From: Flexistipes sp.
GTDB lineage: Bacteria; Chrysiogenota; Deferribacteres; Deferribacterales; Flexistipitaceae
Reading direction: 5' to 3'
NCBI RefSeq assembly: GCF_036172515.1
Contig: NZ_JAXKVW010000024.1
Location: 1-23,599, forward strand
DNA: 23,599 nucleotides
Shown: piece after piece, positions 687 through 23,599 of the stretch
Layout of the letters: each line of letters begins with the position of its first letter
Position numbering within the stretch: the first letter of the stretch is position 1
Made by a program: the position numbers and the translations under genes
The notes under the pieces: model-generated
Databases searched by the model: none
Told to the model about the DNA's origin: nothing
What the model saw: only the letters and a program-made list of their open reading frames with translations

Positions 687-1397
687 TCACTGTTTTTCCC
701 CGCTTTCTGCCAGCGATTTAACATATTTTTTGAATTCTTCCGGCTCCGGCTGCCTTTTTACAACCTCTGTTCCCACCACGAAACCGTCGGCAAATTTCAT
801 AACAGCCGATGCATCAGCCGGTGTTTTGATTCCGAAACCAAAAATCACCTTGTAACCCGATTTTTCTTTTACTTCTTTTATTTTTTTGATATTTACCTGA
901 TTGTTTAAGTCCGCTTTTGAGCCCGTAACGCCTTTCAGTCCGACAAAATAGATAAAATTCTGACCATCAAGATATTGTGTGAGTTTACCGGCGTCGGTAT
1001 CTGTTGTAGCAAAGGGAATGATCGGAATCTCGAACCCTTTTTCCTTGAAAAAGCAGTGATATTCATTAGGCAAATCAGCTATAATCACTCCATCAATTGT
1101 ACTTTTATATTTTTTACTGAAATTTTCGGCTCCATAATGATAAATTATATTGGAATAAGTCATTATATATATTTTGGTTTTTTTGTTTTCACGGATAAAA
1201 TCCATTAATTCTTCAATGTTTATTTGTTTTGTCAGAACATTTTCTCCGGCTCCGGAAATAACCGGACCATCAGCCACCGGGTCGTTAAAGGGGATACCGA
1301 TTTCCACAAAATCAAGCCCGCAGTTCTGGGAAAAAATGAATTCCTCTTTAAATGTTTCAATGTCCGGATATCCGATCATCATGTAGATTCCTTTCAT
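687..1397 (-). CDS. trpA: tryptophan synthase alpha subunit
   Basis: 236 aa; GIPFNDPVADGPVI signature; ATGA start/stop overlap with trpB, consistent with translational coupling. Confidence 0.9.
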   Translation of the reverse strand: MKGIYMMIGYPDIETFKEEFIFSQNCGLDFVEIGIPFNDPVADGPVISGAGENVLTKQINIEELMDFIRENKKTKIYIMTYSNIIYHYGAENFSKKYKSTIDGVIIADLPNEYHCFFKEKGFEIPIIPFATTDTDAGKLTQYLDGQNFIYFVGLKGVTGSKADLNNQVNIKKIKEVKEKSGYKVIFGFGIKTPADASAVMKFADGFVVGTEVVKRQPEPEEFKKYVKSLAESGEKQ

Positions 1398-2563
1398 GAC
1401 AGGCTTCCTCCTCTGTATTCCCTGACAATTTCCAAATCCTTGTCCCCTCTGCCGGAAAGGTTCAGCAGAATATTCTTCTCTTTGAAAAAATTACTGTTTT
1501 TGAATATATATCCCAAAGCGTGGCTTGATTCGAGTGCCGGTATGATTCCTTCATTCCGGGCGAGTTCATAAAATGCAAAAATTGCATCTTCATCCCTGCA
1601 GAATTCGTATTTTACTCTTTTGCTGTCTTTTAAAAATGCATGCTCAGGCCCTACACCTGGATAATCAAGACCTGCTGAAACGGAATGAACAGGGGCAATC
1701 TGTCCGTTTTTCTGCAGAATTACATATGAATGCGAACCCTGAAAGATTCCCTTTTGGCCTTTACTGAATCTTATGGCGTGTTCTCCGGGTTTATCACTTA
1801 ATCCTCCCGCTTCCACACCGATAAGCTCAACTTCCGTATCCATAAATCCTCTGAAAATACCGATGGCGTTGCTGCCTCCGCCTACACATGCAATGACATA
1901 GTCGGGCAGTTTGCCTGATGACTCAAAGTATTCCCTCGCTTCCCGGCCGATAACGGATTGAAAGTGGGATACTACAGACGGAAAAGGGTGCGGACCTAAA
2001 GCTGAACCGAGCAGATAATGGGTATCGTCCACATTTGCCACCCAGTCCTTTAAACAGGCACTGACAGCGTCTTTAAGTGTTTTGCTCCCCTTATCCACAA
2101 CAGTGACTTTTGCGCCCAGCATTTCCATTTTTTCAACGTTAACTCTTTGTCTCTCTGCATCCGTTTTTCCCATATATATTTCGCATTCCAGATTGAAAAG
2201 TGCACATGCTGTGGCCGTTGCCACGCCGTGCTGCCCTGCACCGGTTTCTGCTATAATCCGCTTTTTACCCATCTGCAGGGCAAGCAAAGCCTGCCCAATT
2301 GTATTGTTAATTTTGTGTGCTCCGGTATGAAGCAGATCTTCCCTTTTCAGGTAAAGATTAAAACCGTATTTCTCTGAAAGATTTTCAGCATAATAGACCG
2401 GTGTCGGCCTGCCTGCGTAATCATTCATATATTTAAGAAATTTATTGTTAAAATTTGCATCATTTTTTGCTTTAAAGAAATTTCTTTCCAGTTCGTTCAA
2501 GGCCGGCATGAGCGTTTCCGCCACAAACTGACCCCCGTATTCCCCGTAAAATCCGTTTTTCAT
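1394..2563 (-). CDS. trpB: tryptophan synthase beta subunit (PLP-dependent)
   Basis: 389 aa; N-terminal GEYGGQFV, PLP-lysine region LHTGAHKINN, GGGSNAIG loop. Confidence 0.95.
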   Translation of the reverse strand: MKNGFYGEYGGQFVAETLMPALNELERNFFKAKNDANFNNKFLKYMNDYAGRPTPVYYAENLSEKYGFNLYLKREDLLHTGAHKINNTIGQALLALQMGKKRIIAETGAGQHGVATATACALFNLECEIYMGKTDAERQRVNVEKMEMLGAKVTVVDKGSKTLKDAVSACLKDWVANVDDTHYLLGSALGPHPFPSVVSHFQSVIGREAREYFESSGKLPDYVIACVGGGSNAIGIFRGFMDTEVELIGVEAGGLSDKPGEHAIRFSKGQKGIFQGSHSYVILQKNGQIAPVHSVSAGLDYPGVGPEHAFLKDSKRVKYEFCRDEDAIFAFYELARNEGIIPALESSHALGYIFKNSNFFKEKNILLNLSGRGDKDLEIVREYRGGSLS

Positions 2564-2603
2564 CTTTCCCCCTTGCCAAATGTAATCTTATGTTCTCTTT
2601 TTA

Positions 2604-3146
2604 TTAAAACATTGTCTGCAATATGAATTTTCTCATTTTGTCAAAGCTTTTTTCTCCCGTTTCATCTTCCACACCGCTGGAAACATCCACTCCGAACGGC
2701 CGGTATCTTCTGATGATACGTGCAACATTATTTGCATTAAGTCCGCCTGCAAGTATGATAGTTTCTCTGTATTTTTCAATCCAGCTTCTGAAATTTTCAA
2801 AAGCGCCCGAACCTCTGCTCATATCATACAAAAGGTATTCGTATTTTATATTGTCAGCAGGCTCTTCAGATGTTGCAAAGATTGTCGGAAATTTTGTTTT
2901 TACCGGTTCATAAATTTGTATGTAGTCAAAGTATTCAGCCACATTTTGAACCTCATCGTAAGTGAGTCCGACGGCAGCACTTTTAATCCCTGTTTCTTTA
3001 GCACATTTTGCCAGCTCTTTTGCTTTTTCAATACCCACGAACCGTTTGCTCCTATTGTGAAGCACAACACCTATCATACTGTAATTCAGCTTTGCAGCAT
3101 ATATTATCTGCTCGTCTGTCTTCATGCCGCAAATCTTTACAAACAT
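2604..3146 (-). CDS. trpF: phosphoribosylanthranilate isomerase
   Basis: 180 aa; MFVKICGM N-terminus and TIM-barrel PRAI-like layout; position between trpC and trpB. Confidence 0.85.
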   Translation of the reverse strand: MFVKICGMKTDEQIIYAAKLNYSMIGVVLHNRSKRFVGIEKAKELAKCAKETGIKSAAVGLTYDEVQNVAEYFDYIQIYEPVKTKFPTIFATSEEPADNIKYEYLLYDMSRGSGAFENFRSWIEKYRETIILAGGLNANNVARIIRRYRPFGVDVSSGVEDETGEKSFDKMRKFILQTMF

Positions 3147-3893
3147 TTATTTCAGCCCTCTGTATAAATTTTGAAAACTTTCTTTTATATTGTCTGATTT
3201 CATAAGGTAAGTACCTATAAGAAAAGCATCTGCTCCGGCCCTGCGGAAATTTGCTACATCTTCGGTGCTGTTTATACCGCTTTCAGCGATTTTAAGAAGA
3301 CTGTCCGGCAGTGTTTTTAAAATTTGTGCACCTTTTTGCTTGTCAATTTCGAGTGTATCCAGATTCCTCGAATTTACACCCACCAAAGCAGGTGAAAAGT
3401 CTTTTATTTTTTCGTATTCTTTAGGTGTGTGAATTTCATACAGAATATAAAGGTTCATCTCACGGGCTTTTTCGGATAATCTGCCAATTTCTTCCTGTGT
3501 TAAAACGGCCGCAATGATTAGTATAATATCTGCACCAAAAGCATATGCGGCCTCTATCTGCCTTTCAGAAATGATAAAATCTTTGCAAAGCACCGGAATG
3601 TTAACTTTTTCAGATACTTCTTTCAGGTATTCGAATGAGCCTTTGAAAAAGTACTTGTCGGTAAGTACACTCACAGCTCCTGCCCCGTATTTCTCGTATA
3701 GTGCCGCCTGTTCTGCGGGTGATGCATCGGGTTTTATTTCTCCGGCCGAGGGTGAGGCCTTTTTAACCTCGGCAATAAACGGTTTATTTTTTAGTGTTTG
3801 TAAAGGCTCAATAATATCTTTTGTTCTTTTTGGCAGAATTTTCGGAATTTCTTCAATCTCGTATTTTTTGTTCGCCAGTATTTTATCAAGCAT
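3147..3893 (-). CDS. trpC: indole-3-glycerol phosphate synthase
   Basis: 248 aa; IAEVKKASPSAG, NSRNL and LIGTY motifs typical of IGPS; directly abuts trpD and trpF. Confidence 0.9.
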   Translation of the reverse strand: MLDKILANKKYEIEEIPKILPKRTKDIIEPLQTLKNKPFIAEVKKASPSAGEIKPDASPAEQAALYEKYGAGAVSVLTDKYFFKGSFEYLKEVSEKVNIPVLCKDFIISERQIEAAYAFGADIILIIAAVLTQEEIGRLSEKAREMNLYILYEIHTPKEYEKIKDFSPALVGVNSRNLDTLEIDKQKGAQILKTLPDSLLKIAESGINSTEDVANFRRAGADAFLIGTYLMKSDNIKESFQNLYRGLK

Positions 3894-4889
3894 TTATACA
3901 GCCTTTTCCATTATCATCTTATTTAACTTGGCCGACACACTGCCTTCTTTTATTATTTTTCGTGCTGCATTAAAGCCTTCTTTTAATGTATACATATTCA
4001 TTGTGTAAAGGCTGACGGCTGTATTAACTGCAATCAGGTCGGTCAGCTTTTCGTTTTTACCTTCTATGGTTTCCAGGAAAAGTTTTTTGGCATCTTCTTT
4101 TGAATTTACCACAGGCATGGGAAACTTTTCGAAAAAGCCGGAAGGGTCTATTTCAAATTTTTCAATTTTCCCGTCTTTGATATGGCGCACATAGGTTATA
4201 TCGGAGGATGAGATTTCATCGTAACCGTCTTTGGAGGAGTAAACGATAATGTTGTTTCTCTTCTGTATCCTGAGGGCTTCGGCATACAGATCCAGTTTAT
4301 CAGTCCTGTTGATTCCGATTGTCTGATAATCGGGGGAGCCCGGGTTCAGCATGGGTCCCAAATAGTTGAAAATGGTTGCCACACGAAGATCTTTTCTTAT
4401 TTTTGCTACATTTTTCAATGCCGGATGGTAGTGAGGGGCAAAAAGGAAAATGAAGTTGTTATTGTTGAAATAGGTACGGGAGTTTGTTTCGTCAAGTTTT
4501 GTTGGGACTCCGAGTTCATCCAGTATGTCTGCTGACCCGACTTTTCCGCTTTGTGCCATATTTCCATGTTTTAATACTTTTATTCCCATTGCCGCCAGGA
4601 CCAGGGAAACTGCTGTGGAGACATTTAAGGTTGATTTCCCGTCACCGCCGGTTCCGCAGGTGTCGATAGTTTTTGTAGCAGAGTGCTGAAACTTTACCTT
4701 ATGCTCATTTAAAACTGTTGCAGCTGCAGCGACCTCTTCAGCTGTTTCCCCTCTGAGTTTCATGGCTATCAGAGCGGAACCGATCCCGGCTTCAGATATT
4801 TCACCGGTGAGTATCCCGTTAAAGAGTGTTTTTACTTCATCAAAATCCAGCACTTTGCCGTTATTGACTTTTTGTAAAATATTATGCAT
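3894..4889 (-). CDS. trpD: anthranilate phosphoribosyltransferase
   Basis: 331 aa; GTGGDGKSTLNVSTA PRPP-binding motif; 8-nt overlap with trpG. Confidence 0.9.
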   Translation of the reverse strand: MHNILQKVNNGKVLDFDEVKTLFNGILTGEISEAGIGSALIAMKLRGETAEEVAAAATVLNEHKVKFQHSATKTIDTCGTGGDGKSTLNVSTAVSLVLAAMGIKVLKHGNMAQSGKVGSADILDELGVPTKLDETNSRTYFNNNNFIFLFAPHYHPALKNVAKIRKDLRVATIFNYLGPMLNPGSPDYQTIGINRTDKLDLYAEALRIQKRNNIIVYSSKDGYDEISSSDITYVRHIKDGKIEKFEIDPSGFFEKFPMPVVNSKEDAKKLFLETIEGKNEKLTDLIAVNTAVSLYTMNMYTLKEGFNAARKIIKEGSVSAKLNKMIMEKAV

Positions 4890-5457
4890 AGCTTACCTCC
4901 CTGTTGCTGCTTTTTGAGTATTCTATAAAATTATTAATTATCTTTTGTCCCTGACTGCTGAGATAGGACTCCGGATGAAACTGTACTCCGAATAAGTGTT
5001 TTGCGGAGTCTTCGACAGCCATTATTTCATTATCCGAAGCTGATCGCGCTATTGCTATATCATTCGCATCTACAACCAGCGAATGGTACCTTACTGCATC
5101 AAATGATTCGGTAAGTCCCGAAAGGAGTATACTTTCGTGCTGTTTCTTTACTGTATCCAGTTTGCCGTGTTTGATTGAAGCCGCTCTTCTTACAGGGTAT
5201 CCGAGATAATGGCAGATACACTGCATTCCCAGACAGACTCCAAAAATGGGTTTTGAGCCCAGATAGTGCTCCAGATATTTTAAAGAAGTGCCTGAGTTTG
5301 AAGGGTTTGAAGGCCCCGGTGATATAACAATGCCTTCGTATCTGTCTGCTGGTATAAATTCATCATTTTTTATCACATCGACTTTTTCCCCAGCTTTTAA
5401 GAAAAGACTATAAAGGTTGTATGTGAATGAATCGTAGTTATCAATTAGCAAAAACAT
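4882..5457 (-). CDS. trpG: anthranilate synthase component II (class-I glutamine amidotransferase)
   Basis: 191 aa; MFLLIDNYDSFTYNL start, catalytic GVCLGMQ Cys and GVQFHPES; overlaps trpE by 17 nt. Confidence 0.9.
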   Translation of the reverse strand: MFLLIDNYDSFTYNLYSLFLKAGEKVDVIKNDEFIPADRYEGIVISPGPSNPSNSGTSLKYLEHYLGSKPIFGVCLGMQCICHYLGYPVRRAASIKHGKLDTVKKQHESILLSGLTESFDAVRYHSLVVDANDIAIARSASDNEIMAVEDSAKHLFGVQFHPESYLSSQGQKIINNFIEYSKSSNREVSYA

Positions 5458-6910
5458 TTTCGCCCTCCAGATTTTTTATTCTGTCTATAGCCGTGAAGAG
5501 TGCTTTCAGCTTACCTTCCACTTCATGGTATTCCTTTGCCGGTATACTGTCGTAAACGATGCCGGCTCCTGCCCGAATGATTGTCTTATCGGGTTTTACC
5601 ATGGCGCTTCTGATGGTTATGCATGTATCAAGATTTCCGTTATAAGAGATATAACCGGCGCAGCCTGCGTAAAATCCTCTCGGTGATCTTTCACACTCAC
5701 TTATTATTTCCATTGCTCTGATTTTAGGTGCACCACTTACCGTCCCTGCCGGGAATGTGCTTACAAATGCATCGAGTGATGTTTTGTCATCTCTGAGTCT
5801 TCCCGATACCTCTGAAACGATATGGACTACGTGTGAATAGACTTCCGCATTAAAAGATTTCTCCACTTTTACTGAATCGGTGTCACAACTTGTGTAAAGG
5901 TCGTTTCTGGCCAGATCAAGAAGCATCAGATGTTCGGATTTTTCCTTTTCATCTTCAAGAAGCTCTTTTTTGATTTTTTCAATATCCTCTCCGACGGGAT
6001 ATGTCCCGGCTATCGGTTTTAGTGTTGCCTTACCGCTTTCCACTTTCAGATGAATTTCAGGGGATGAGCCCAGCATTGTTTTATCTTTCATTTTGAAATA
6101 AAACATATATGGAGAAGGATTTACATTTCTTAAGGATCTGTAAAAGCTCAGAGGATGGATGCTTCCCTTTACTTCATATTTATTGGAAAAGACGCATTGT
6201 ATAAGCTCCCCGTCAGCGATATCGGATTTTAGCTTATTAACCGTTTTTTCGAATTCTTCTTTAGAAAATTCTTTTGAAACGCTCAGTTTATCAGCGGATG
6301 TGTAGTTGTCAAAATTGAAGTCGTTTATTTCATCAGCCATTTTTCTTGTTCTTTTTACGGCTGTTTCGTAATTACTTTCTAAATTTCCGTTAGTTTCTGC
6401 ATTACAGGCGGCATAAACCCTTCCTGTCCTGTTGTCAAAGACATAGAATTCATTCATAAGCATTAGATAAATGAGGTTTTCATCGGCAGGCTCGGTGAGT
6501 TTATGTCTTAGAGTCCCCGTATAGTTGATGAATTCATAACCGAAATAACCCACATATCCTCCGGAAAATGCTCCGAACTTGGGATCCGCATATCCGTTAA
6601 ATTTTTCTATTTTGCTGTTGAGATAGTCCACCGGATTTATATCGATTTTTGTTTTTTTGCCGTTTTTCTCAACGTTAAGACTGCCGTTTTTAAGTGAAAC
6701 AATTTCGCTTGGATTTATTCCGAAAAACGAAAACCTTGAAAAAGTCTTGTCCAGATTTGCACTTTCCAGCAAAAATACACTGTCTCTGTTGGAGAAATTC
6801 TTCAACAAACCTATGGGGGTAAGGGTGTCGCCTACAATCTCACGATAAATGGTAATGTGAGAATATTTTTCTGAAAGTTTTTTAAATCTCTCTTTGTCCG
6901 GGTATATCAT
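5441..6910 (-). CDS. trpE: anthranilate synthase component I
   Basis: Chorismate-binding enzyme fold (…GAPKIRAMEII…GCAGYISYNG…AGAGIV). The track ORF begins at GTG 6991, but ATG at 6910-6908 (MIYPDKERF…) is preceded by a perfect AGGAGG (6914-6919) at 4 nt and avoids reading through the terminator hairpins. Start therefore set at 6910. Confidence 0.9.
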   Translation of the reverse strand: MIYPDKERFKKLSEKYSHITIYREIVGDTLTPIGLLKNFSNRDSVFLLESANLDKTFSRFSFFGINPSEIVSLKNGSLNVEKNGKKTKIDINPVDYLNSKIEKFNGYADPKFGAFSGGYVGYFGYEFINYTGTLRHKLTEPADENLIYLMLMNEFYVFDNRTGRVYAACNAETNGNLESNYETAVKRTRKMADEINDFNFDNYTSADKLSVSKEFSKEEFEKTVNKLKSDIADGELIQCVFSNKYEVKGSIHPLSFYRSLRNVNPSPYMFYFKMKDKTMLGSSPEIHLKVESGKATLKPIAGTYPVGEDIEKIKKELLEDEKEKSEHLMLLDLARNDLYTSCDTDSVKVEKSFNAEVYSHVVHIVSEVSGRLRDDKTSLDAFVSTFPAGTVSGAPKIRAMEIISECERSPRGFYAGCAGYISYNGNLDTCITIRSAMVKPDKTIIRAGAGIVYDSIPAKEYHEVEGKLKALFTAIDRIKNLEGENVFAN

Positions 6911-6925
6911 ATTTCCTCCTGATAT

Positions 6926-6956
6926 AAAAAAAGGCCGTGGTACAATCCACGGCCTT
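6926..6956 (-). terminator. intrinsic terminator T2 (promoter-distal), ending 6 nt before the trpE SD
   Basis: Minus strand reads AAGGCCGTGG-attgta-CCACGGCCTT followed by TTTTTTT. 10-bp GC-rich stem, 6-nt loop, 7-U tail. Confidence 0.7.
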
Positions 6957-6963
6957 AAGATAC

Positions 6964-6997
6964 AAAAAAAGGCCGTGTGGTTGTTCACCACACGGCC
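6964..6997 (-). terminator. intrinsic terminator T1 (promoter-proximal), candidate attenuator of the trp leader
   Basis: Minus strand reads GGCCGTGTGG-tgaacaa-CCACACGGCC followed by TTTTTTT. The loop plus flanking bases (GTGAACAACC) are perfectly complementary to GGTTGTTCAC at 7029-7020, which overlaps the leader stop codon. This gives a possible competing antiterminator helix. Confidence 0.7.
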
Positions 6998-7028
6998 CTT
7001 ATATTTTTACACAAAGGTAGTGAACAAC

Positions 7029-7100
7029 CTAACTTATTCCGTTAACTGTCCACCACCAAGCATTATTGATTAGCATTATTTTTATTTTCATAGTTTGCAT
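7029..7100 (-). CDS. trp operon leader peptide (trpL-like), 23 aa: MQTMKIKIMLINNAWWWTVNGIS
   Basis: Read by hand from the reverse complement of 7029..7100. Codons TGG TGG TGG sit at 7058-7050, with stop TAG at 7031-7029. The ORF lies between the stop of the upstream gene (7134) and the tandem terminators, in the position expected for ribosome-mediated attenuation. The SD is weak (GAGT) and the start could instead be ATG 7091 or 7076. Confidence 0.65.
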   Translation of the reverse strand: MQTMKIKIMLINNAWWWTVNGIS

Positions 7101-7133
7101 AATACTCATTAAAAAAGTTTTGTAAAGTATTTT

Positions 7134-8450
7134 TTATGTTACTTCGATAATTTTTTTGCCGATGCTGATATATCCTTTGTTTCTGCCGTCTGACTTTGCC
7201 CTGTACATGAGATTGTCTATATTTTTGATGATATTGTCCAAGTTCTCAGAAGTGTTTTTGCAAAAAACAGCTCCGATGCTTATTGTTACAGGGATTTGTT
7301 TACAATCTTCCTTAATATTTAAATTTCTTGCCGCTTCCAGCAGCTTTGAGACAATTGCCGGCATATCCGCTTCTTTTTGACCGGGGAAAATACAGATGAA
7401 CTCTTCTCCCCCGAAACGCCCGATAATATCAGATTTGCGGACAGAGTTTTTTATTGCTTCTGTTAATTTTATTAATACCCTGTCACCCACATCGTGGCCG
7501 TGCCGGTCGTTTATATTTTTAAAATGGTCGATATCCCACAAAGCTACCCCAAAGCTGTGACCGTAACGTCCGGCATTATAGTTGACATGCTCCAGCTGTT
7601 CCATGAAAAAACGTCTGTTATAAAGGCCGGTCAAAGAATCGGTGGTTGCTTTTTTGAATAACTGTCTGTTTGTTTTCTCCAAATCATCGTACAGTTTTTT
7701 TGTTTTAATGTTGCTTGTTACCCTCAGTATTGCTTCTTCTGCTGAAAACGGTTTGAGGATGTAGTCGTTTGCACCGTGAAGAAGAAGTGTTCTCATGAAT
7801 GAGCTTTCTCTTGAAGATGCCAGTATTAGGATAGGGACATTTTTCAGAGAATTTTTATGCCGAAGTTCTTTTGTAAGCTCCATTCCGTCCATCTTTTTCA
7901 TAAACAAATCTGCGATGATAATATCAGGGGTATTGTTTTTTAAATTTTTGAGAAGCTCGGAAGGCTCAGAAAACGTTGACACAGTTATCCCGGTGGATTT
8001 GAGAATATTTTCGAGAAACTGTGTTTCCGCTATATCGTTATCAACTATCCATGCCGATGAGCCGCTGATATCTGAAATTGATATAATTTCAACAATTTCA
8101 TCCACATATTTGACAAAATCCTCATTTACTTTTGACTTCTCCAGGAAATCTATGGCGCCTGCACCGAAAGCTTTGAATTTCAGTGTTTCGTCATTTTCAT
8201 TTGAGGTTAATACAATTACAGGTACCGAGCGGAATTTTTTTCTTTTTTGCATGTATTCGCAAAGATCAAGTCCAACACCATCCTGCAGTTCGTATGAAAT
8301 GATTACAAGAGAGGGGAGAAATTCATCCAGTATATCTTTTGCTTCTGAATATGAATTAGCGGTCAATATTTTGTATTTACCCTTCAGATAGTTCTCCAAA
8401 ACAAATCTTGACACTTTGGAAGGGTCTGCTATAAGGATATACTTTTTCAC
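7134..8450 (-). CDS. response-regulator diguanylate cyclase (REC-REC-GGDEF, PleD-like)
   Basis: GGEEF active site with RKSD (RxxD) I-site five residues upstream. REC2 carries the canonical acceptor Asp (DIIIADLFMKKMDG). REC1 appears to lack it (VIISYELQDG). The track ORF runs to 8525 and would overlap gltX; GTG at 8450-8448 (VKKYILIADPS) has an AGAGG SD at 5 nt, so it is chosen as the start. Confidence 0.8.
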   Translation of the reverse strand: MKKYILIADPSKVSRFVLENYLKGKYKILTANSYSEAKDILDEFLPSLVIISYELQDGVGLDLCEYMQKRKKFRSVPVIVLTSNENDETLKFKAFGAGAIDFLEKSKVNEDFVKYVDEIVEIISISDISGSSAWIVDNDIAETQFLENILKSTGITVSTFSEPSELLKNLKNNTPDIIIADLFMKKMDGMELTKELRHKNSLKNVPILILASSRESSFMRTLLLHGANDYILKPFSAEEAILRVTSNIKTKKLYDDLEKTNRQLFKKATTDSLTGLYNRRFFMEQLEHVNYNAGRYGHSFGVALWDIDHFKNINDRHGHDVGDRVLIKLTEAIKNSVRKSDIIGRFGGEEFICIFPGQKEADMPAIVSKLLEAARNLNIKEDCKQIPVTISIGAVFCKNTSENLDNIIKNIDNLMYRAKSDGRNKGYISIGKKIIEVT

Positions 8451-8515: not shown

Positions 8516-9970
8516 ATGTCAACAAGAGTTAGATTTGCTCCCAGTCCTACCGGACATCTGCATGTGGGAAATGCCAGAACCGCCCTTTTTAATTATCTTT
8601 ATGCAGCCTCAAAAAAGGGAAAATTTATTCTCAGAATAGAGGACACCGATTTGCAGCGCTCCTCAATGGAAAATGAAGAAATGATATACGAAGATATGAA
8701 ATGGCTGGGATTTTACTGGGATGAAGGACCCCGAAAAGGCGGTGAATATGGCCCGTACAGACAGACGGAGCGGTTTGATCTGTATAAAAAGTATGCGGAT
8801 AAACTGCTTGAGAATGGTTACGCATATAAATGCTTCTGTTCAAAGGAGGAGCTTGAAAAGGAGAAGGAGAAAGCTTTGGCCGAGGGCAGACCGCCCAGAT
8901 ACAGCGGGAAATGCAGGAATTTATCCGAAGGTGAAATTGAGAAACTTGAGAATAGAGGGATAAAACCTTCAATCCGGTTTAGAGTTAATAAAGAGAATGT
9001 GCTTGTGAGTGATGAAATCAGAGGGGATATTGACTTTAAAACCGATTCGTTCGGCGATTTTATCATAGTAAGGCCTGACGGCACACCGGTTTATAATTTT
9101 GTTGTTGTGATCGATGATGCGCTTATGAATATCTCCCATGTAATCCGGGGAGACGATCACCTGAGCAATACGCCGAAGCAGGTTCTTATGTTTGAGGCTA
9201 TGGGGTTTGATATACCCAAATTTGCCCATATACCGATGATATTGGGACCGGACCATTCCAAACTGAGCAAAAGGCACGGTGTTACCAGTATTAACGCGTT
9301 CAGGGATCAGGGATATCTGTCTGAAGCTTTGTTTAATTACCTTGCACTTTTAAGCTGGTCAGATGAAAACGAAAGGGAAATTTTATCAAGTGAGGAGCTC
9401 GCCGAAGTCTTCAGCCTTGAAAGGGTTTCCAAAAGTGCTGCTGTCTTTGATTTTGAGAAGCTGAAATGGATGAACGGTATATATATCAGAAATCTTGACG
9501 AAGATGATTTCTTTGAGAGGGTAAAACCGTTTATTGTTAAATCGGGAACGACCGACATACATTATATTGATGAAAATTCTGAGAGGGTGAAACAGATGGC
9601 TCTTTCCGTAAGGGACAACCTTGACCTGCTATCTGATATCGGAGATTATCTTAAGATTTATTTTGAGTATCCTGAGACTTTTGATGAGGAAGCTTCGGAA
9701 ATTTTATCATGGGAAACAACACCTGTTGTGATTAATATGCTTAAGGAAGAAGTTGAAAAAGCAGAAGAAATTGACGGAGTAAAATATAAAGAGATTGTGA
9801 AAAAGATACAGAAAGAGAAGAAAATCAAAGGGAAACCGCTTTTCATGGCAATTCGGGTTGGTCTCAGCGGTAAAACAAAAGGCCCTGAAGTGGATAAGCT
9901 TGCCACACTCCTGGACAAAGATGAGGTTTTGAAACGTCTGGCAAGGGTTTCCGCTCATTTTAGCGAGTGA
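8516..9970 (+). CDS. gltX: glutamyl-tRNA synthetase
   Basis: 484 aa; class-I HIGH motif (HVGNART) and KMSKS-type KLSKR; GGAGG SD at 6 nt. Confidence 0.95.
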   Translation: MSTRVRFAPSPTGHLHVGNARTALFNYLYAASKKGKFILRIEDTDLQRSSMENEEMIYEDMKWLGFYWDEGPRKGGEYGPYRQTERFDLYKKYADKLLENGYAYKCFCSKEELEKEKEKALAEGRPPRYSGKCRNLSEGEIEKLENRGIKPSIRFRVNKENVLVSDEIRGDIDFKTDSFGDFIIVRPDGTPVYNFVVVIDDALMNISHVIRGDDHLSNTPKQVLMFEAMGFDIPKFAHIPMILGPDHSKLSKRHGVTSINAFRDQGYLSEALFNYLALLSWSDENEREILSSEELAEVFSLERVSKSAAVFDFEKLKWMNGIYIRNLDEDDFFERVKPFIVKSGTTDIHYIDENSERVKQMALSVRDNLDLLSDIGDYLKIYFEYPETFDEEASEILSWETTPVVINMLKEEVEKAEEIDGVKYKEIVKKIQKEKKIKGKPLFMAIRVGLSGKTKGPEVDKLATLLDKDEVLKRLARVSAHFSE

Positions 9971-19859: not shown

Positions 19860-20651
19860 TTATTTGATTACAATGAGTGCGGCAGGATCAAGTATTCTGA
19901 AGGTGAAAGATTCTGTAAAATAAAGGGTAACCTCTTTACTGTCGTGCTGCAGATATCCTATGGATAAATCCTGTCCCAGTGTAAGTCTGAAATCGCCGCC
20001 TCTTTCAGATACCAAATAGGCTTCTGAAATATTGCTGCTTACCTTTACAGATCCTCCGATAATATCTTCAATCTGTTTCTTCAATGGGTATCCTTTATTT
20101 AATCCGACAATATTTTTCATCTGATCAACGGAAACAACGAGTGAATAGGGGCCGTCAACGGAAGCACTTTTCAGTTTGGCAACAGCTTCCGCTGTTACAT
20201 AAGGGAGGTCTTCGGTCTTGGTTGGCAGTTTTAAAGAACTATGTTCACTTGAGTCTTTCAGCCCTTTAATATTTGCTTTTTCAAGACCGTAATATACAGA
20301 TTTGTCTTCGAAGACAGCTATCTTTTTTGCCGCATCTTCAAGGGAAGAAAGGTCAATATCTTCAGCCCCTCTTAATACGCTGTCCAACTCCCACAATTTG
20401 AGTTTAAACGGGACTCTGGCTTCGACTAGCGGCTGTACTTTGGGGATACCATATTCAACAGCTGAGCCTTTATCCGTTACAATTTCCAGCCTTCCTGTCT
20501 TTACAGATTCTGTATCAATTCCCAACGGTCCTTCAACATCCACAAATTTTCTGACACTTAGGTGTGAGGAAAGGGTTCTGTTTGCCTGAAGATTTATTTC
20601 TTCCCACGCTTTATCCGGGATGGGTGCCAGATTTTGTCTTAATATATTCAT
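19860..20651 (-). CDS. encapsulin nanocompartment shell protein (family 1, HK97 fold)
   Basis: 263 aa. The N-terminus MNILRQNLAPIPDKAWEEI…RKFVDVEGPLG…LWELD…DLSSLEDAAKKIAVFED closely tracks the Thermotoga-type family-1 encapsulin sequence as I remember it. Confidence 0.85.
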   Translation of the reverse strand: MNILRQNLAPIPDKAWEEINLQANRTLSSHLSVRKFVDVEGPLGIDTESVKTGRLEIVTDKGSAVEYGIPKVQPLVEARVPFKLKLWELDSVLRGAEDIDLSSLEDAAKKIAVFEDKSVYYGLEKANIKGLKDSSEHSSLKLPTKTEDLPYVTAEAVAKLKSASVDGPYSLVVSVDQMKNIVGLNKGYPLKKQIEDIIGGSVKVSSNISEAYLVSERGGDFRLTLGQDLSIGYLQHDSKEVTLYFTESFTFRILDPAALIVIK

Positions 20652-20663
20652 TATTTACCCCCT

Positions 20664-21011
20664 TTATTTATTAAGTTTGCCTATATTCAGACTTTTGTTA
20701 TCACTGTCCTGGGATTCTGCCTCGCCTTCTTCCAAATGGGCAATATTTCCTTCGGTAAACAGATATGTTCTCAGTTCATTGTCCCATGCAGGCATATTAC
20801 GTCTCAGCCATTCCAGTGCCATACACGCATGCTCGATTTCTTCATCCCTGTTATGTGCCAATATCTCCTTTAAGTTTTCATCATCTGTTGCATCGACTCT
20901 CTGCTGGTACCAGTCGATTGCTTCAATCTCCTCTTTGAGACTGTTTAATGCGCGGGTAAAATTCTTGGTCTCTTCACTTAATTTTTCTTCGGGCTCATGG
21001 TATTGTGACAT
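20664..21011 (-). CDS. encapsulated ferritin-like cargo protein (EncFtn/Flp) with C-terminal targeting peptide
   Basis: 115 aa. Motif LKEILAHNRDEEIEHACMALEWLRRNMPAWDNELRTYLFT is typical of EncFtn. C-terminal SLNIGKLNK fits the SLxIGxLK cargo-loading peptide. AGGAGG SD at 6 nt; stop lies 13 nt before the encapsulin start. Confidence 0.8.
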   Translation of the reverse strand: MSQYHEPEEKLSEETKNFTRALNSLKEEIEAIDWYQQRVDATDDENLKEILAHNRDEEIEHACMALEWLRRNMPAWDNELRTYLFTEGNIAHLEEGEAESQDSDNKSLNIGKLNK

Positions 21012-21488: not shown

Positions 21489-22195
<707 letters not shown>

Positions 22196-22206
22196 GGGAG
22201 CTTTGC

Positions 22207-23274
22207 ATGTCTGGGAACAGTTTCGGTAAAATTTTCAGAATCACAACTTTTGGAGAAAGTCACGGACCTGCTGTGGGTGTGGTTCTGGACGGGTGTCCTG
22301 CCGGATTGAAACTTCATGAAGACGATATTCAGAAAGAGCTTGACAGAAGAAGACCCGGTCAAAGTGAAATAACTACTCCGAGAAATGAGTCTGATAAAGT
22401 GGAAATTTTAAGCGGTGTGTTTGAGGGCAAAACTACGGGAACGCCTGTTTGTATGATTGTATATAACAAAAATCAGCAGTCCAAAGATTACAGCGATGTA
22501 AAAGATTTGTTTCGCCCGGGGCATGCTGATTATACATATTTTATGAAATACGGTATTAGAGACTATCGGGGAGGCGGACGTTCTTCATCGAGGGAGACTA
22601 TAGGCAGAGTGGCTGCCGGCGCGATAGCAAAAAAACTTTTGTCACTTAAAAATATAAAGATTACAGGTTATGTAAAACAGGTGGGTACTGTTAAAGGGGA
22701 AAAATTTGACGAGGGTTTTATTGAAAAGAATCCGGTAAGATGTGCTGATTCTGAAAAATATCAGGAAATGAAGGATTATATATTAAAAGCAAAAGACAGA
22801 GGTGATTCGGTTGGTGGCATAGTTGAAGTTATAATAAGGGGAGTTGAGCCCGGTTTGGGTGAGCCTGTTTTTGACAGACTGAATGCAGGTTTGGCAAAAG
22901 CTATTTTATCCCTGCCAGCAGTGAAAGGGATAGAATTTGGCAGAGGTTTCGACGTGGTTTATGCCTGCGGCAGTGAAAATAATGATGAAATTTCTCCGCA
23001 TGGCTTTTTGTCAAATAATGCAGGAGGGACACTTGGAGGGATTTCCACCGGTCAGGACATCGTTTTTAGATTTCCGGTAAAGCCTGCTTCGTCTATTTTA
23101 ATTCCAAAGCAGACCATAGATAAATTTGGCAACAGCAGAGAAGTTGTTACCAAAGGCAGGCATGATCCCTGCGTCGCCCCCAGAGTCGTTCCAGTCGCCG
23201 AGGCGATGGCTTCTTTGGTTATTGTGGATAGTATTATGATAAATAAAAATAAAAAAATTTCGGATTTTTCCTAA
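22207..23274 (+). CDS. aroC: chorismate synthase
   Basis: ATG 22207 ([20 protein letters not shown]) with GAGGGAG SD at 6 nt; the track ORF starts at GTG 22192 inside the preceding gene. Signatures [22 protein letters not shown]. Confidence 0.9.
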
Positions 23275-23526: not shown

Positions 23527-23599
23527 TGGATGGAGAGTTTGATCCTGGCTCAGAACGAACGCTGGCGGCGTGCTTAACACATGCAAGTCAGGGGGAATC
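23527..23599 (+). rRNA. 16S rRNA gene, 5' end (continues beyond window)
   Basis: Universal AGAGTTTGATCCTGGCTCAG at 23534-23553, followed by GAACGAACGCTGGCGGCGTGCTTAACACATGCAAGTC. The mature 5' end is estimated a few nt upstream of the primer site. Confidence 0.9.

Follow-up and report, generated by a model that had tools for sequence, protein, structure and literature searches.

A predicted tryptophan attenuator upstream of trpEGDCFBA in Flexistipes sp., in which one leader peptide would control two terminators

The 23,599-nt stretch of Flexistipes sp. DNA analysed here (the window) carries a complete trp operon, and an RNA element lies immediately 5' of it. We consider it highly probable that this element is a ribosome-mediated tryptophan attenuator of trpEGDCFBA, arranged as a relay of six pairing segments in which one sensor controls two intrinsic terminators. 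The sensor would be a short open reading frame (ORF) with a run of three Trp codons, and the terminators would be two GC-rich hairpins that share pairing strands with each other. The elements of the leader, their conservation and the covariation in five helices were read from the sequence and from its comparison with relatives. All coordinates are window positions, and the element is read on the minus strand.

A Trp-codon ORF and two U-tailed hairpins lie between the GGDEF gene and trpE

The gap between the stop codon of a response-regulator/GGDEF gene (7136-7134) and the ATG of trpE (6910) is 223 nt long. This gap, the short ORF, its run of TGG codons, the two hairpins and a promoter-like pair of hexamers were all found where the original prediction had placed them. 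The ORF contains TGG TGG TGG at 7058-7050 and is terminated by TAG at 7031-7029. Read from the ATG at 7100 it has the 23 codons first described; further in-frame ATGs are present at 7109, 7091 and 7076. It had been claimed that such a Trp run was very unlikely to arise by chance. A single copy of TGGTGGTGG is present in the 23.6-kb window, where 0.10 would be expected, and 9 of 100 shuffles produced one or more, so that the Trp triplet alone is only mildly unlikely by chance. The fold of the 196-nt leader has a z-score of -7.5 relative to dinucleotide shuffles (none of 200 shuffles folded as well).

Folding and a consensus scan confirmed both GC-rich hairpins with their tails of seven U. Hairpin 1 spans 7000-6968 and has the core GGCCGTGTGG/CCACACGGCC, and hairpin 2 spans 6956-6931 with the arms AAGGCCGTGG/CCACGGCCTT; both were scored as terminator-like by the scan, which predicts termination at each. 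The complementarity reported between the 10 nt GGTTGTTCAC at the leader stop codon (7029-7020) and GTGAACAACC in hairpin 1 is exact, and the full antiterminator helix is longer than described, reaching 13 bp with one G-U pair. The minimum free energy (MFE) fold contained an additional helix, absent from the original prediction, in which the Trp codons GGUGGUGGACA pair with UGUUCACUACC just 3' of the stop codon. Finally, CACGGCCUU in the 3' part of hairpin 1 is complementary over 9 bp to AAGGCCGUG in hairpin 2. With the pairing strands numbered as segments 1 to 6 (Table 1), the free energies of the helices were -18.7 kcal/mol for 1:2, -23.5 kcal/mol for 2:3, -25.4 kcal/mol for 3:4 (terminator 1), -13.9 kcal/mol for 4:5 and -18.2 kcal/mol for 5:6 (terminator 2). 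A long-range helix of the MFE fold, which enclosed both terminators and touched the Shine-Dalgarno sequence of trpE, was AU-rich and missing from the fold of a close relative (L084); we do not regard it as a feature of the leader.

The effect of a ribosome was simulated by masking a 28-nt footprint on growing transcripts, which were then folded. With the footprint on the Trp codons, the MFE structure was 2:3 when the transcript reached segment 3, and 2:3 together with 4:5 (-39.4) when it reached segment 5. A footprint at the stop codon masks segment 2, and terminator 1 was then the MFE structure. The position of the footprint thus switched the leader between 2:3 and 3:4, which is the exchange of antiterminator and terminator that had been proposed.

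The leader is conserved in Deferribacterota

A protein homology search with TrpE of the window found its nearest named relatives exclusively in Deferribacterota, namely in Calditerrivibrio (64-66% identity), Limisalsivibrio, Deferribacter and Denitrovibrio, together with three metagenomic proteins that were 83-95% identical. No identical protein was retrieved for this TrpE. By the similarity of TrpE the lineage belongs to Deferribacterota. We compared the DNA upstream of trpE from the close metagenomic relatives (L081/L082, L083 and L084), Calditerrivibrio sp. (L085), C. nitroreducens (L086), Limisalsivibrio acetivorans (L087), Deferribacter abyssi (L088), Denitrovibrio acetiphilus (L089/L090) and a Denitrovibrio-like contig (L212). 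The conservation across these leaders is the decisive evidence for our observation. All 10 Deferribacterota trpE leaders contained an ORF with three or four consecutive Trp residues (WWW or WWWW) in frame as well as both GC-rich hairpins, and in every one of them the leader stop codon lay 0-3 nt from segment 2. The upstream neighbour varied and was a GGDEF, HSP20, Dus, MFS transporter, hypothetical or radical-SAM protein gene. Conservation of the peptide was limited to N-x-WWW-T; its other residues were not conserved between genera and the length of the ORF was variable. A variable peptide around a fixed WWW is what would be expected of a translated sensor and not of a peptide with a function of its own.

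The position of the promoter and the start codon, which the original prediction had left ambiguous, could be approached in the same comparison. The sigma-70-like promoter TTTACA-16-TATTAT is present at 7126-7099 as described and is overlapped by the upstream in-frame ATGs at 7109 and 7100. In the Deferribacterota leaders the promoters matched by regular expression had the form TT[G/T]AC[A/T]-16/17-(-10 box), and an ATG in frame with WWW was located 6-7 nt after the -10 box in 8 of 8 matched leaders and, as judged by eye, also in L085. The frame between this ATG and WWW was kept in all eight despite the differing lengths of the ORFs. In genera outside the clade of the window, the ATG at the promoter-defined distance was the only in-frame ATG or lay within one codon of the only one. 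No Shine-Dalgarno sequence was seen before the candidate leader ATGs when the sequence of the window was read. Because the distance from promoter to ATG is conserved and no Shine-Dalgarno sequence precedes it, the ATG at 7091, which is 7 nt after the -10 box, is likely to be the leader start; the leader would then have 20 codons, not 23, and would probably be translated from a leaderless or near-leaderless mRNA. To this extent conservation would settle the ambiguity.

In one close relative (L082, 2251-2382) the JGI gene caller had annotated a 43-aa ORF without a Pfam hit (MRKFWQ...WWWTVNWIS), which corresponds to the leader ORF with an N-terminal extension that runs through the promoter. Trp leaders of this kind already sit in protein databases as anonymous small ORFs.

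Both conformations of the leader show compensatory changes

Nine Deferribacterota leaders were aligned with MAFFT and the pairing of the helices was counted. In the terminated state (1:2, 3:4 and 5:6), 92.0% of the cells were paired and 10 pairs had changed on both sides, with 35-63% paired in slid controls. Similar results were obtained for the read-through state (2:3 and 4:5), where 96.9% of the cells were paired, 10 pairs had changed on both sides and slid controls gave 36-57%. The observed percentage of pairing, the covariation score and the number of double changes were not reached by any column shuffle. Further pair types were not exceptionally frequent, their count being reached in 11 of 500 and 192 of 500 shuffles, and kinship among the sequences inflates all counts of this kind. 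When the helices were considered one by one, 2:3 was 96.4% paired, with 5 of its 13 pairs changed on both sides; 3:4 was 96% paired, with 6 compensatory pairs; and 4:5 and 5:6 were 97.5% and 93.3% paired, respectively. In a wider alignment of 35 sequences, described below, the corresponding values were 98.3% for 3:4 and 94.8% for 5:6. Compensatory changes are present in both the terminator and the antiterminator conformation, and covariation is present in all five helices.

Hairpin 2 is linked to hairpin 1 in leaders of distant lineages

A constitutive terminator right before trpE would make the attenuator pointless, and for this reason we tested whether hairpin 2 is coupled to the rest of the leader. 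Metagenomes were scanned with a pattern that fixed the Trp codons and hairpin 1 only, which returned at least 120 rows. Among the matches listed, 31 were followed by trp genes and 89 were chance matches, mostly in GC-rich DNA. Most of the 31 trp-linked matches listed were followed by trpE, at approximately 35% identity to that of the window, which places them in other lineages; none of the 31 came from a close relative of the window. Nearly all of them had a second U-tailed hairpin whose 5' arm could pair with the 3' arm of hairpin 1, although the search pattern imposed hairpin 1 alone. When segment 5 was shuffled, 99% or more of the shuffles gave a 4:5 helix no more stable than the real one in 28 of the 30 two-hairpin leaders; the median was -15.8 kcal/mol, against -6.2 kcal/mol in the shuffles. 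The 4:5 helix usually ran into the U-tract of hairpin 1, which was paired with an A-tract ahead of hairpin 2, and in three leaders (L120, L153 and L156) it was the longest perfect stem in the region, with 13-16 bp.

When 35 modules consisting of hairpin 1 and hairpin 2 were aligned, 4:5 was 96.5% paired, compared with 33-48% in slid controls, and contained 15 double-change cells, compared with 2.5 in shuffles. In Denitrovibrio, L212 and L153, segment 5 reads GGCUGU(G) and matches CACAGCC in segment 4, a change from G-C to A-U. Segment 6 of Denitrovibrio keeps CACGGCC and forms a G-U pair with segment 5, whereas the match to segment 4 is perfect. In L143 the 4:5 helix is formed by CCCCUCC/GGAGGGG. 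The same two-hairpin layout was observed in metagenome-assembled genomes (MAGs) of Syntrophales (L061) and Armatimonadota (L017) that had been reached by way of TrpE, independently of the pattern. The doubled terminator had been considered unusual in the original prediction; two hairpins are indeed present, and the doubling is explained by the conserved 4:5 pairing, which would couple terminator 2 to the ribosome signal.

The MAGs L061 and L017 came from a scan of contigs obtained with TrpE from a named-taxon sample, which comprised only relatives of 40% identity or less and was dominated by a universally conserved TrpE peptide. A short ORF containing WW was present in 11 of its 80 stretches. 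Two MAGs labelled 'Spirochaetes bacterium' (L091, 1881-1979, and L214, ~1680-1830) had just one terminator behind a leader with WWW or WW. Their TrpE is 53-55% identical to that of the window, and in L091 the partner of the antiterminator is again located in the terminator loop. This group may be usable as an outgroup for dating the gain of the second terminator.

The scans also brought together a second and larger subfamily of Trp leaders (L094, L096, L112, L114, L120, L127, L132, L147, L156, L157, L160, L171, L180, L188, L199, L201 and the Syntrophales MAG L061). The ORF in these leaders is preceded by a Shine-Dalgarno sequence and its peptides end, for example, in NNWWWWNLSRRLIRR or NWWWQNPMEGFDHR. 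By eye, the loop of hairpin 1 appears complementary to a strand of the GGAGGGGUU type, and the same 4:5 relay links the two hairpins. None of the members matched any Rfam family at its gathering score. A group II intron domain near the contig end of L096 (26-165, minus strand; RF02003, 87.8 bits) is unrelated to the two-terminator Trp leader on that contig.

Weighing of alternative explanations

The leader could be a classical four-segment attenuator (1:2, 2:3 and 3:4) that is followed by an independent and unregulated second terminator, serving as a fail-safe, left over from a duplication or belonging to another transcript, with 4:5 as a by-product. GGCCGTG/CACGGCC is common to both hairpins, which would be expected after a duplication; the core varies little, so that part of the 4:5 signal is conservation; and 5:6 (-18.2) is stabler than 4:5 (-13.9). 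However, a constitutive 10-bp GC stem with U7 right before trpE would cancel derepression. Moreover, the two hairpins resemble each other only in the stretch engaged in 4:5 and have unlike inner stems and loops, and this resemblance is maintained in different phyla. Segments 4 and 5 change together, both in the leaders with GGCUGU(G) and in L143, and also as UUC/GAA in C. nitroreducens. The length of the perfect 4:5 helices of L120, L153 and L156 and the MFE structure obtained with a stalled ribosome, in which 2:3 and 4:5 are combined as soon as segment 5 emerges, likewise argue against a by-product. We regard an independent second terminator as unlikely.

A different possibility is that the RNA senses a ligand or a protein, as a riboswitch resembling the trpB motif, a T-box or a TRAP-type leader would, and that the ORF is incidental. 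No Rfam 15 family matched the leader of the window or the leaders of 13 relatives at its gathering score. The top Rfam match in the region was the trpB motif (RF04312; 32.5 bits, E 0.0098, 6961-7057, minus strand), a riboswitch candidate according to its authors (PMC11109978), with a similar succession of hairpin and terminator. This score is far under the gathering threshold of 59, the likeness is limited to that layout, the trpB consensus has no UGG run, and the same authors leave a classic attenuator open (PMC11109978). The T-box and TRAP alternatives named in the original prediction were not found. The T-box class, which is marked by a stem I carrying a specifier codon and by the conserved T-box sequence of its antiterminator, had no match at the gathering score in the window and none at E values up to 10 in the leader. 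Recognition by TRAP was judged by about 9-11 (G/U)AG triplets that are 2-3 nt apart and overlap the antiterminator; the 223-nt leader contains three such triplets, and the longest correctly spaced chain is one. The enterobacterial Trp_leader (RF00513) was absent at its gathering score and also from the 36 matches at E values up to 10 in 6800-7300, and the Bacteroid-trp family (RF01692) gave 27.8 bits against a gathering score of 49 (E 0.53, 6989-7105, minus strand). On the Rfam results and the triplet count we rejected the T-box, TRAP and enterobacterial Trp_leader classes. Conservation extends to the reading frame of the ORF, the spacing of its ATG from the -10 box, the Trp run and the placement of the stop codon at segment 2, but not to the rest of the peptide or its length, which is the pattern expected of a translated sensor; no unpaired pocket is conserved. 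A sensing RNA with an incidental ORF is therefore hardly probable at all. Since its authors leave an attenuator open, members of the trpB motif are themselves candidates to be checked for short ORFs with regulatory codons.

It is also conceivable that the terminated leader RNA or the Trp-rich peptide, or both, act in trans, besides or instead of attenuation in cis, by analogy with rnTrpL and peTrpL. The leaderless trpL of Sinorhizobium provides a precedent, in which the attenuated RNA and the peptide both act in trans (PMC7298713, PMC6614838), and the residues N-x-WWW-T are conserved in our leaders. The conserved codons that follow WWW (ACA and others) are, however, explained by the 1:2 pairing, and outside this short motif the peptide is not conserved between genera. 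A function in trans would be compatible with attenuation in cis; we consider it very unlikely here.

Several observations weigh against the reading preferred here, in which one ribosome signal controls two terminators. When the ribosome is stalled, the complete terminator 1 (-29.6) beats 2:3 (-23.7), and the complete terminators 1 and 2 together (-49.4) beat 2:3 plus 4:5. Because the completed terminators are thermodynamically preferred, read-through would depend on kinetic trapping, with the alternative helices forming first, as in classical systems. In both Calditerrivibrio leaders hairpin 1 has no clean U-tract (L085, ~2410-2440, UUUUAAGUUU; L086, ~2410-2445, UUCUUAGUUU), whereas the U-run behind hairpin 2 is uninterrupted; the UUC in the tail of the C. 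nitroreducens hairpin 1 finds its partner in a GAA that precedes hairpin 2. Hairpin 1 may in this genus be only an intermediate helix, like CD of the his leader, and not a terminator. Because its U-tract is degraded there, the two-terminator reading may apply to the window and to most, but not all, relatives. The core GCCGUG/CACGGC varies little, so that much of the approximately 96% pairing of 4:5 is conservation. In the alignment of 35 modules, 26 sequences had been selected by a pattern that fixes hairpin 1, and a recent origin of hairpin 2 by duplication of hairpin 1 would by itself create the 4:5 complementarity. MAFFT placed hairpin 2 of Limisalsivibrio wrongly; it was kept in the alignment of nine leaders, where it works against the tested structure, and was examined separately outside this alignment. 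Lastly, there is no terminator in the window between the GGDEF gene and the leader, and read-through from this gene is possible. With these points taken into account, ribosome-mediated attenuation remains supported by the conserved WWW ORF, the position of its stop codon, the hairpins and the compensatory changes in both states.

Proposed mechanism

We infer the start of transcription, leaderless translation, termination at each of the hairpins and the response to tryptophan from the arrangement of the leader. Transcription would begin at approximately the A of the leader ATG (7091) from the promoter at 7126-7099, and the 20-codon leader would be translated without a 5' untranslated region. 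When charged tRNA-Trp is plentiful, the ribosome would pass the Trp codons, reach the stop codon and cover segment 2. Segments 3 and 4 would then pair to form terminator 1, and most polymerases would stop at the first U-tract; those that escape would meet terminator 2, which could form because segment 4 is locked in hairpin 1. In the absence of any translation, 1:2 would form and lead to the same terminated outcome. When charged tRNA-Trp is scarce, the ribosome would stall on the Trp codons and cover segment 1. Segment 2 would be free to pair with the emerging segment 3, which would block hairpin 1, and the freed segment 4, consisting of the 3' arm and the U-tract, would pair with the A-tract and 5' arm of segment 5 and thereby block hairpin 2. 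With both hairpins blocked, the polymerase would read into trpE.

A broader proposal is that a leaderless Trp sensor gates two serial terminators through shared strands, the U-tract of terminator 1 being a strand of the antiterminator of terminator 2, in a widespread leader family outside Rfam 15. We put this forward tentatively, as a possibility somewhat short of an even chance. If it is true, the family would span Deferribacterota, Syntrophales, Armatimonadota and other uncultured lineages and would represent an attenuator with one sensor and two gates whose tightness is multiplicative. It could also act as a time filter, in which only stalls that last past the second gate, approximately 45 nt later, give read-through.

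Comparison with known attenuators

Ribosome-mediated attenuation of trp operons is a textbook mechanism. The leader of the window has the sequence features of this class, namely a 20-codon Trp-rich ORF, predicted terminators before trpE and a mutually exclusive antiterminator set by the position of the ribosome. With trpL of Escherichia coli and Salmonella (RF00513) it shares consecutive Trp codons in segment 1, a stop codon at the edge of segment 2, helices 1:2, 2:3 and 3:4 that exclude one another and, immediately before trpE, a GC-rich terminator that ends in a U-tract. It differs from trpL in having three Trp codons instead of two, in having no match to RF00513 and belonging to Deferribacterota, in the second terminator that is coupled via 4:5, and in that its translation is probably leaderless and not led by a Shine-Dalgarno sequence.

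The topology of the helices (1:2, 3:4 and 5:6 versus 2:3 and 4:5) is the six-segment relay of the enterobacterial his leader, in which AB, CD and EF alternate with BC and DE (PMC10989985). In the his attenuator, too, three hairpins form in the terminated state and two shifted helices in the read-through state, and the stall is propagated through a chain of helices (PMC10989985). The regulatory codons in our leader are, however, Trp rather than His codons. A U-run follows EF, the last hairpin, and no other in the his leader, whereas U7 is also present behind the middle hairpin of the window and of most relatives, which makes that hairpin a predicted terminator; its U-tract doubles as a pairing strand of 4:5.

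Trp-codon leader peptides followed by terminators are present outside Proteobacteria in the Bacteroidete RF01692 and in actinobacterial trp attenuators. The alignment to RF01692, a match below threshold, places UGGUGGUGG on the Trp codons of the model; the downstream structure and the layout with two terminators differ from these systems. Strands of the GGCC type with several partners ('complementary triples') are conserved over large distances in trp attenuators of Actinobacteria and Proteobacteria (PMC1262725). Leaderless sensors have been described as well. The trpL transcript of Sinorhizobium meliloti starts at the leader ATG (PMC7298713), and the mycobacterial attenuators with polycysteine small ORFs are leaderless (bioRxiv 10.1101/834739). 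In the trp operon of S. meliloti there is no repression at initiation and attenuation carries the regulation. These systems have a single attenuator, and the leaderless start proposed here is deduced from the distance between promoter and ATG.

Tandem attenuators are known from the mgtCBR leader of Salmonella (PMC3641672) and from synthetic pT181 constructs (bioRxiv 10.1101/003335). They resemble our leader in that two serial termination decisions are made in one leader, which should multiply repression. The mgtCBR leader uses two ORFs and two signals, and the synthetic pT181 constructs use two copies of an antisense sensor, whereas here one ORF and one signal would act through shared strands. 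In a literature search that covered comparative genomics in subscription journals only in part, we found no paper on attenuators in Deferribacterota, none on a single leader peptide that controls two terminators and nothing pertinent on tandem terminators in attenuators of amino-acid operons.

Features of the leader and its genomic neighbourhood

The positions of the features are collected in Table 1.

Table 1. Features of the trp leader and its target operon in the window
Feature	Position	Strand	Basis
-35-like hexamer TTTACA of the predicted leader promoter	7121..7126	-	Consensus scan; TT[G/T]AC[A/T] at the same position in other Deferribacterota leaders, with any upstream gene
-10-like hexamer TATTAT, 16-nt spacer after the -35 hexamer	7099..7104	-	Consensus scan, promoter regular expression
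Likely leader ORF (trpL-like), 20 codons and stop, peptide MKIKIMLINNAWWWTVNGIS	7029..7091	-	
Three consecutive Trp codons (regulatory codons)	7050..7058	-	WWW or WWWW in frame in all relatives
Segment 1, UGGUGGUGGACAG, 5' strand of the 1:2 helix	7046..7058	-	MFE folds; 1:2 85.9% paired in 9 sequences
Segment 2, GGUUGUUCACUACC, from the last base of the leader stop codon; pairs with segment 1 or segment 3	7016..7029	-	
Segment 3, loop and inner 5' arm of hairpin 1; pairs with segment 2	6979..6993	-	
Hairpin 1, predicted terminator 1 (3:4), 14-bp stem, 5-nt loop, U7 at 6970-6964	6964..7000	-	Folds, consensus scan
Segment 4, CACGGCCUU, 3' arm of hairpin 1 and first Us of its tail; alternative partner segment 5	6969..6977	-	
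Segment 5, AAGGCCGUG, 5' arm of hairpin 2; pairs with segment 4 or segment 6	6948..6956	-	
Hairpin 2, predicted terminator 2 (5:6), 10-bp stem, 6-nt loop, U7 at 6932-6926	6926..6956	-	Folds, consensus scan
trpE Shine-Dalgarno AGGAGG; trpE ATG at 6910	6915..6920	-	
trpE-G-D-C-F-B-A operon, presumed target of regulation	687..6910	-	Pfam assigned all seven ORFs

The response-regulator/GGDEF gene, assigned by Pfam, is located 5' of the trp operon at 8525-7134 on the minus strand. We considered whether the hairpins could be the terminators of this gene and rejected the idea: the element stays with trpE behind differing upstream genes, and an insert in a close relative parts it from the GGDEF gene and leaves the unit of promoter and leader untouched. 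This insert of ~290 nt (L081, 1995-2284, and the same in L082) is found in a 95%-identical relative between the GGDEF stop codon and the -35 hexamer of the leader promoter, and is missing from the window. It contains nested inverted repeats, with 25-nt arms that are 84% complementary and 16-nt arms that are 94% complementary, and gave no Rfam match at E values up to 0.01; it looks like a miniature inverted-repeat transposable element or a structured insertion. The longest GGDEF ORF of the window (TTG at 8525, 463 aa) overlaps the start of a divergent gltX-like gene (8516) by 10 nt (8516-8525). With relatives called at lengths of 438-439 aa, GGDEF translation in the window probably starts at a more downstream codon, and the overlap would be an artefact of the ORF listing.

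Elsewhere the window contains a multihaem cytochrome gene and an encapsulin shell gene (Linocin_M18, 19860-20651, minus strand). Directly upstream of the latter, on the same strand, is an ORF of 115 aa (20664-21011) that could encode a cargo protein. The plus strand carries crcB (fluoride channel), DUF190 and aroC (chorismate synthase) one after another at 21489-23274, shortly ahead of a 16S rRNA gene that starts at 23527. No fluoride riboswitch was detected upstream of crcB at the Rfam gathering score, and there is no Trp leader in front of aroC, a gene of the pathway that supplies tryptophan synthesis.

Implications

Our understanding of attenuation itself is unchanged by these results and their novelty is modest. 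They would extend classical trp leader-peptide attenuation to Deferribacterota and describe a leader family outside Rfam 15 that is also found in other lineages, which would allow such leaders to be annotated. The point of interest is the design, a his-like chain of helices in which one stall would disarm two terminators and the U-tract of terminator 1 would be reused in the next antiterminator. If this is confirmed, it would offer a compact natural means of keeping basal read-through low while reaching a large dynamic range, possibly with no need for a repressor, and could serve as a template for synthetic tandem attenuators.

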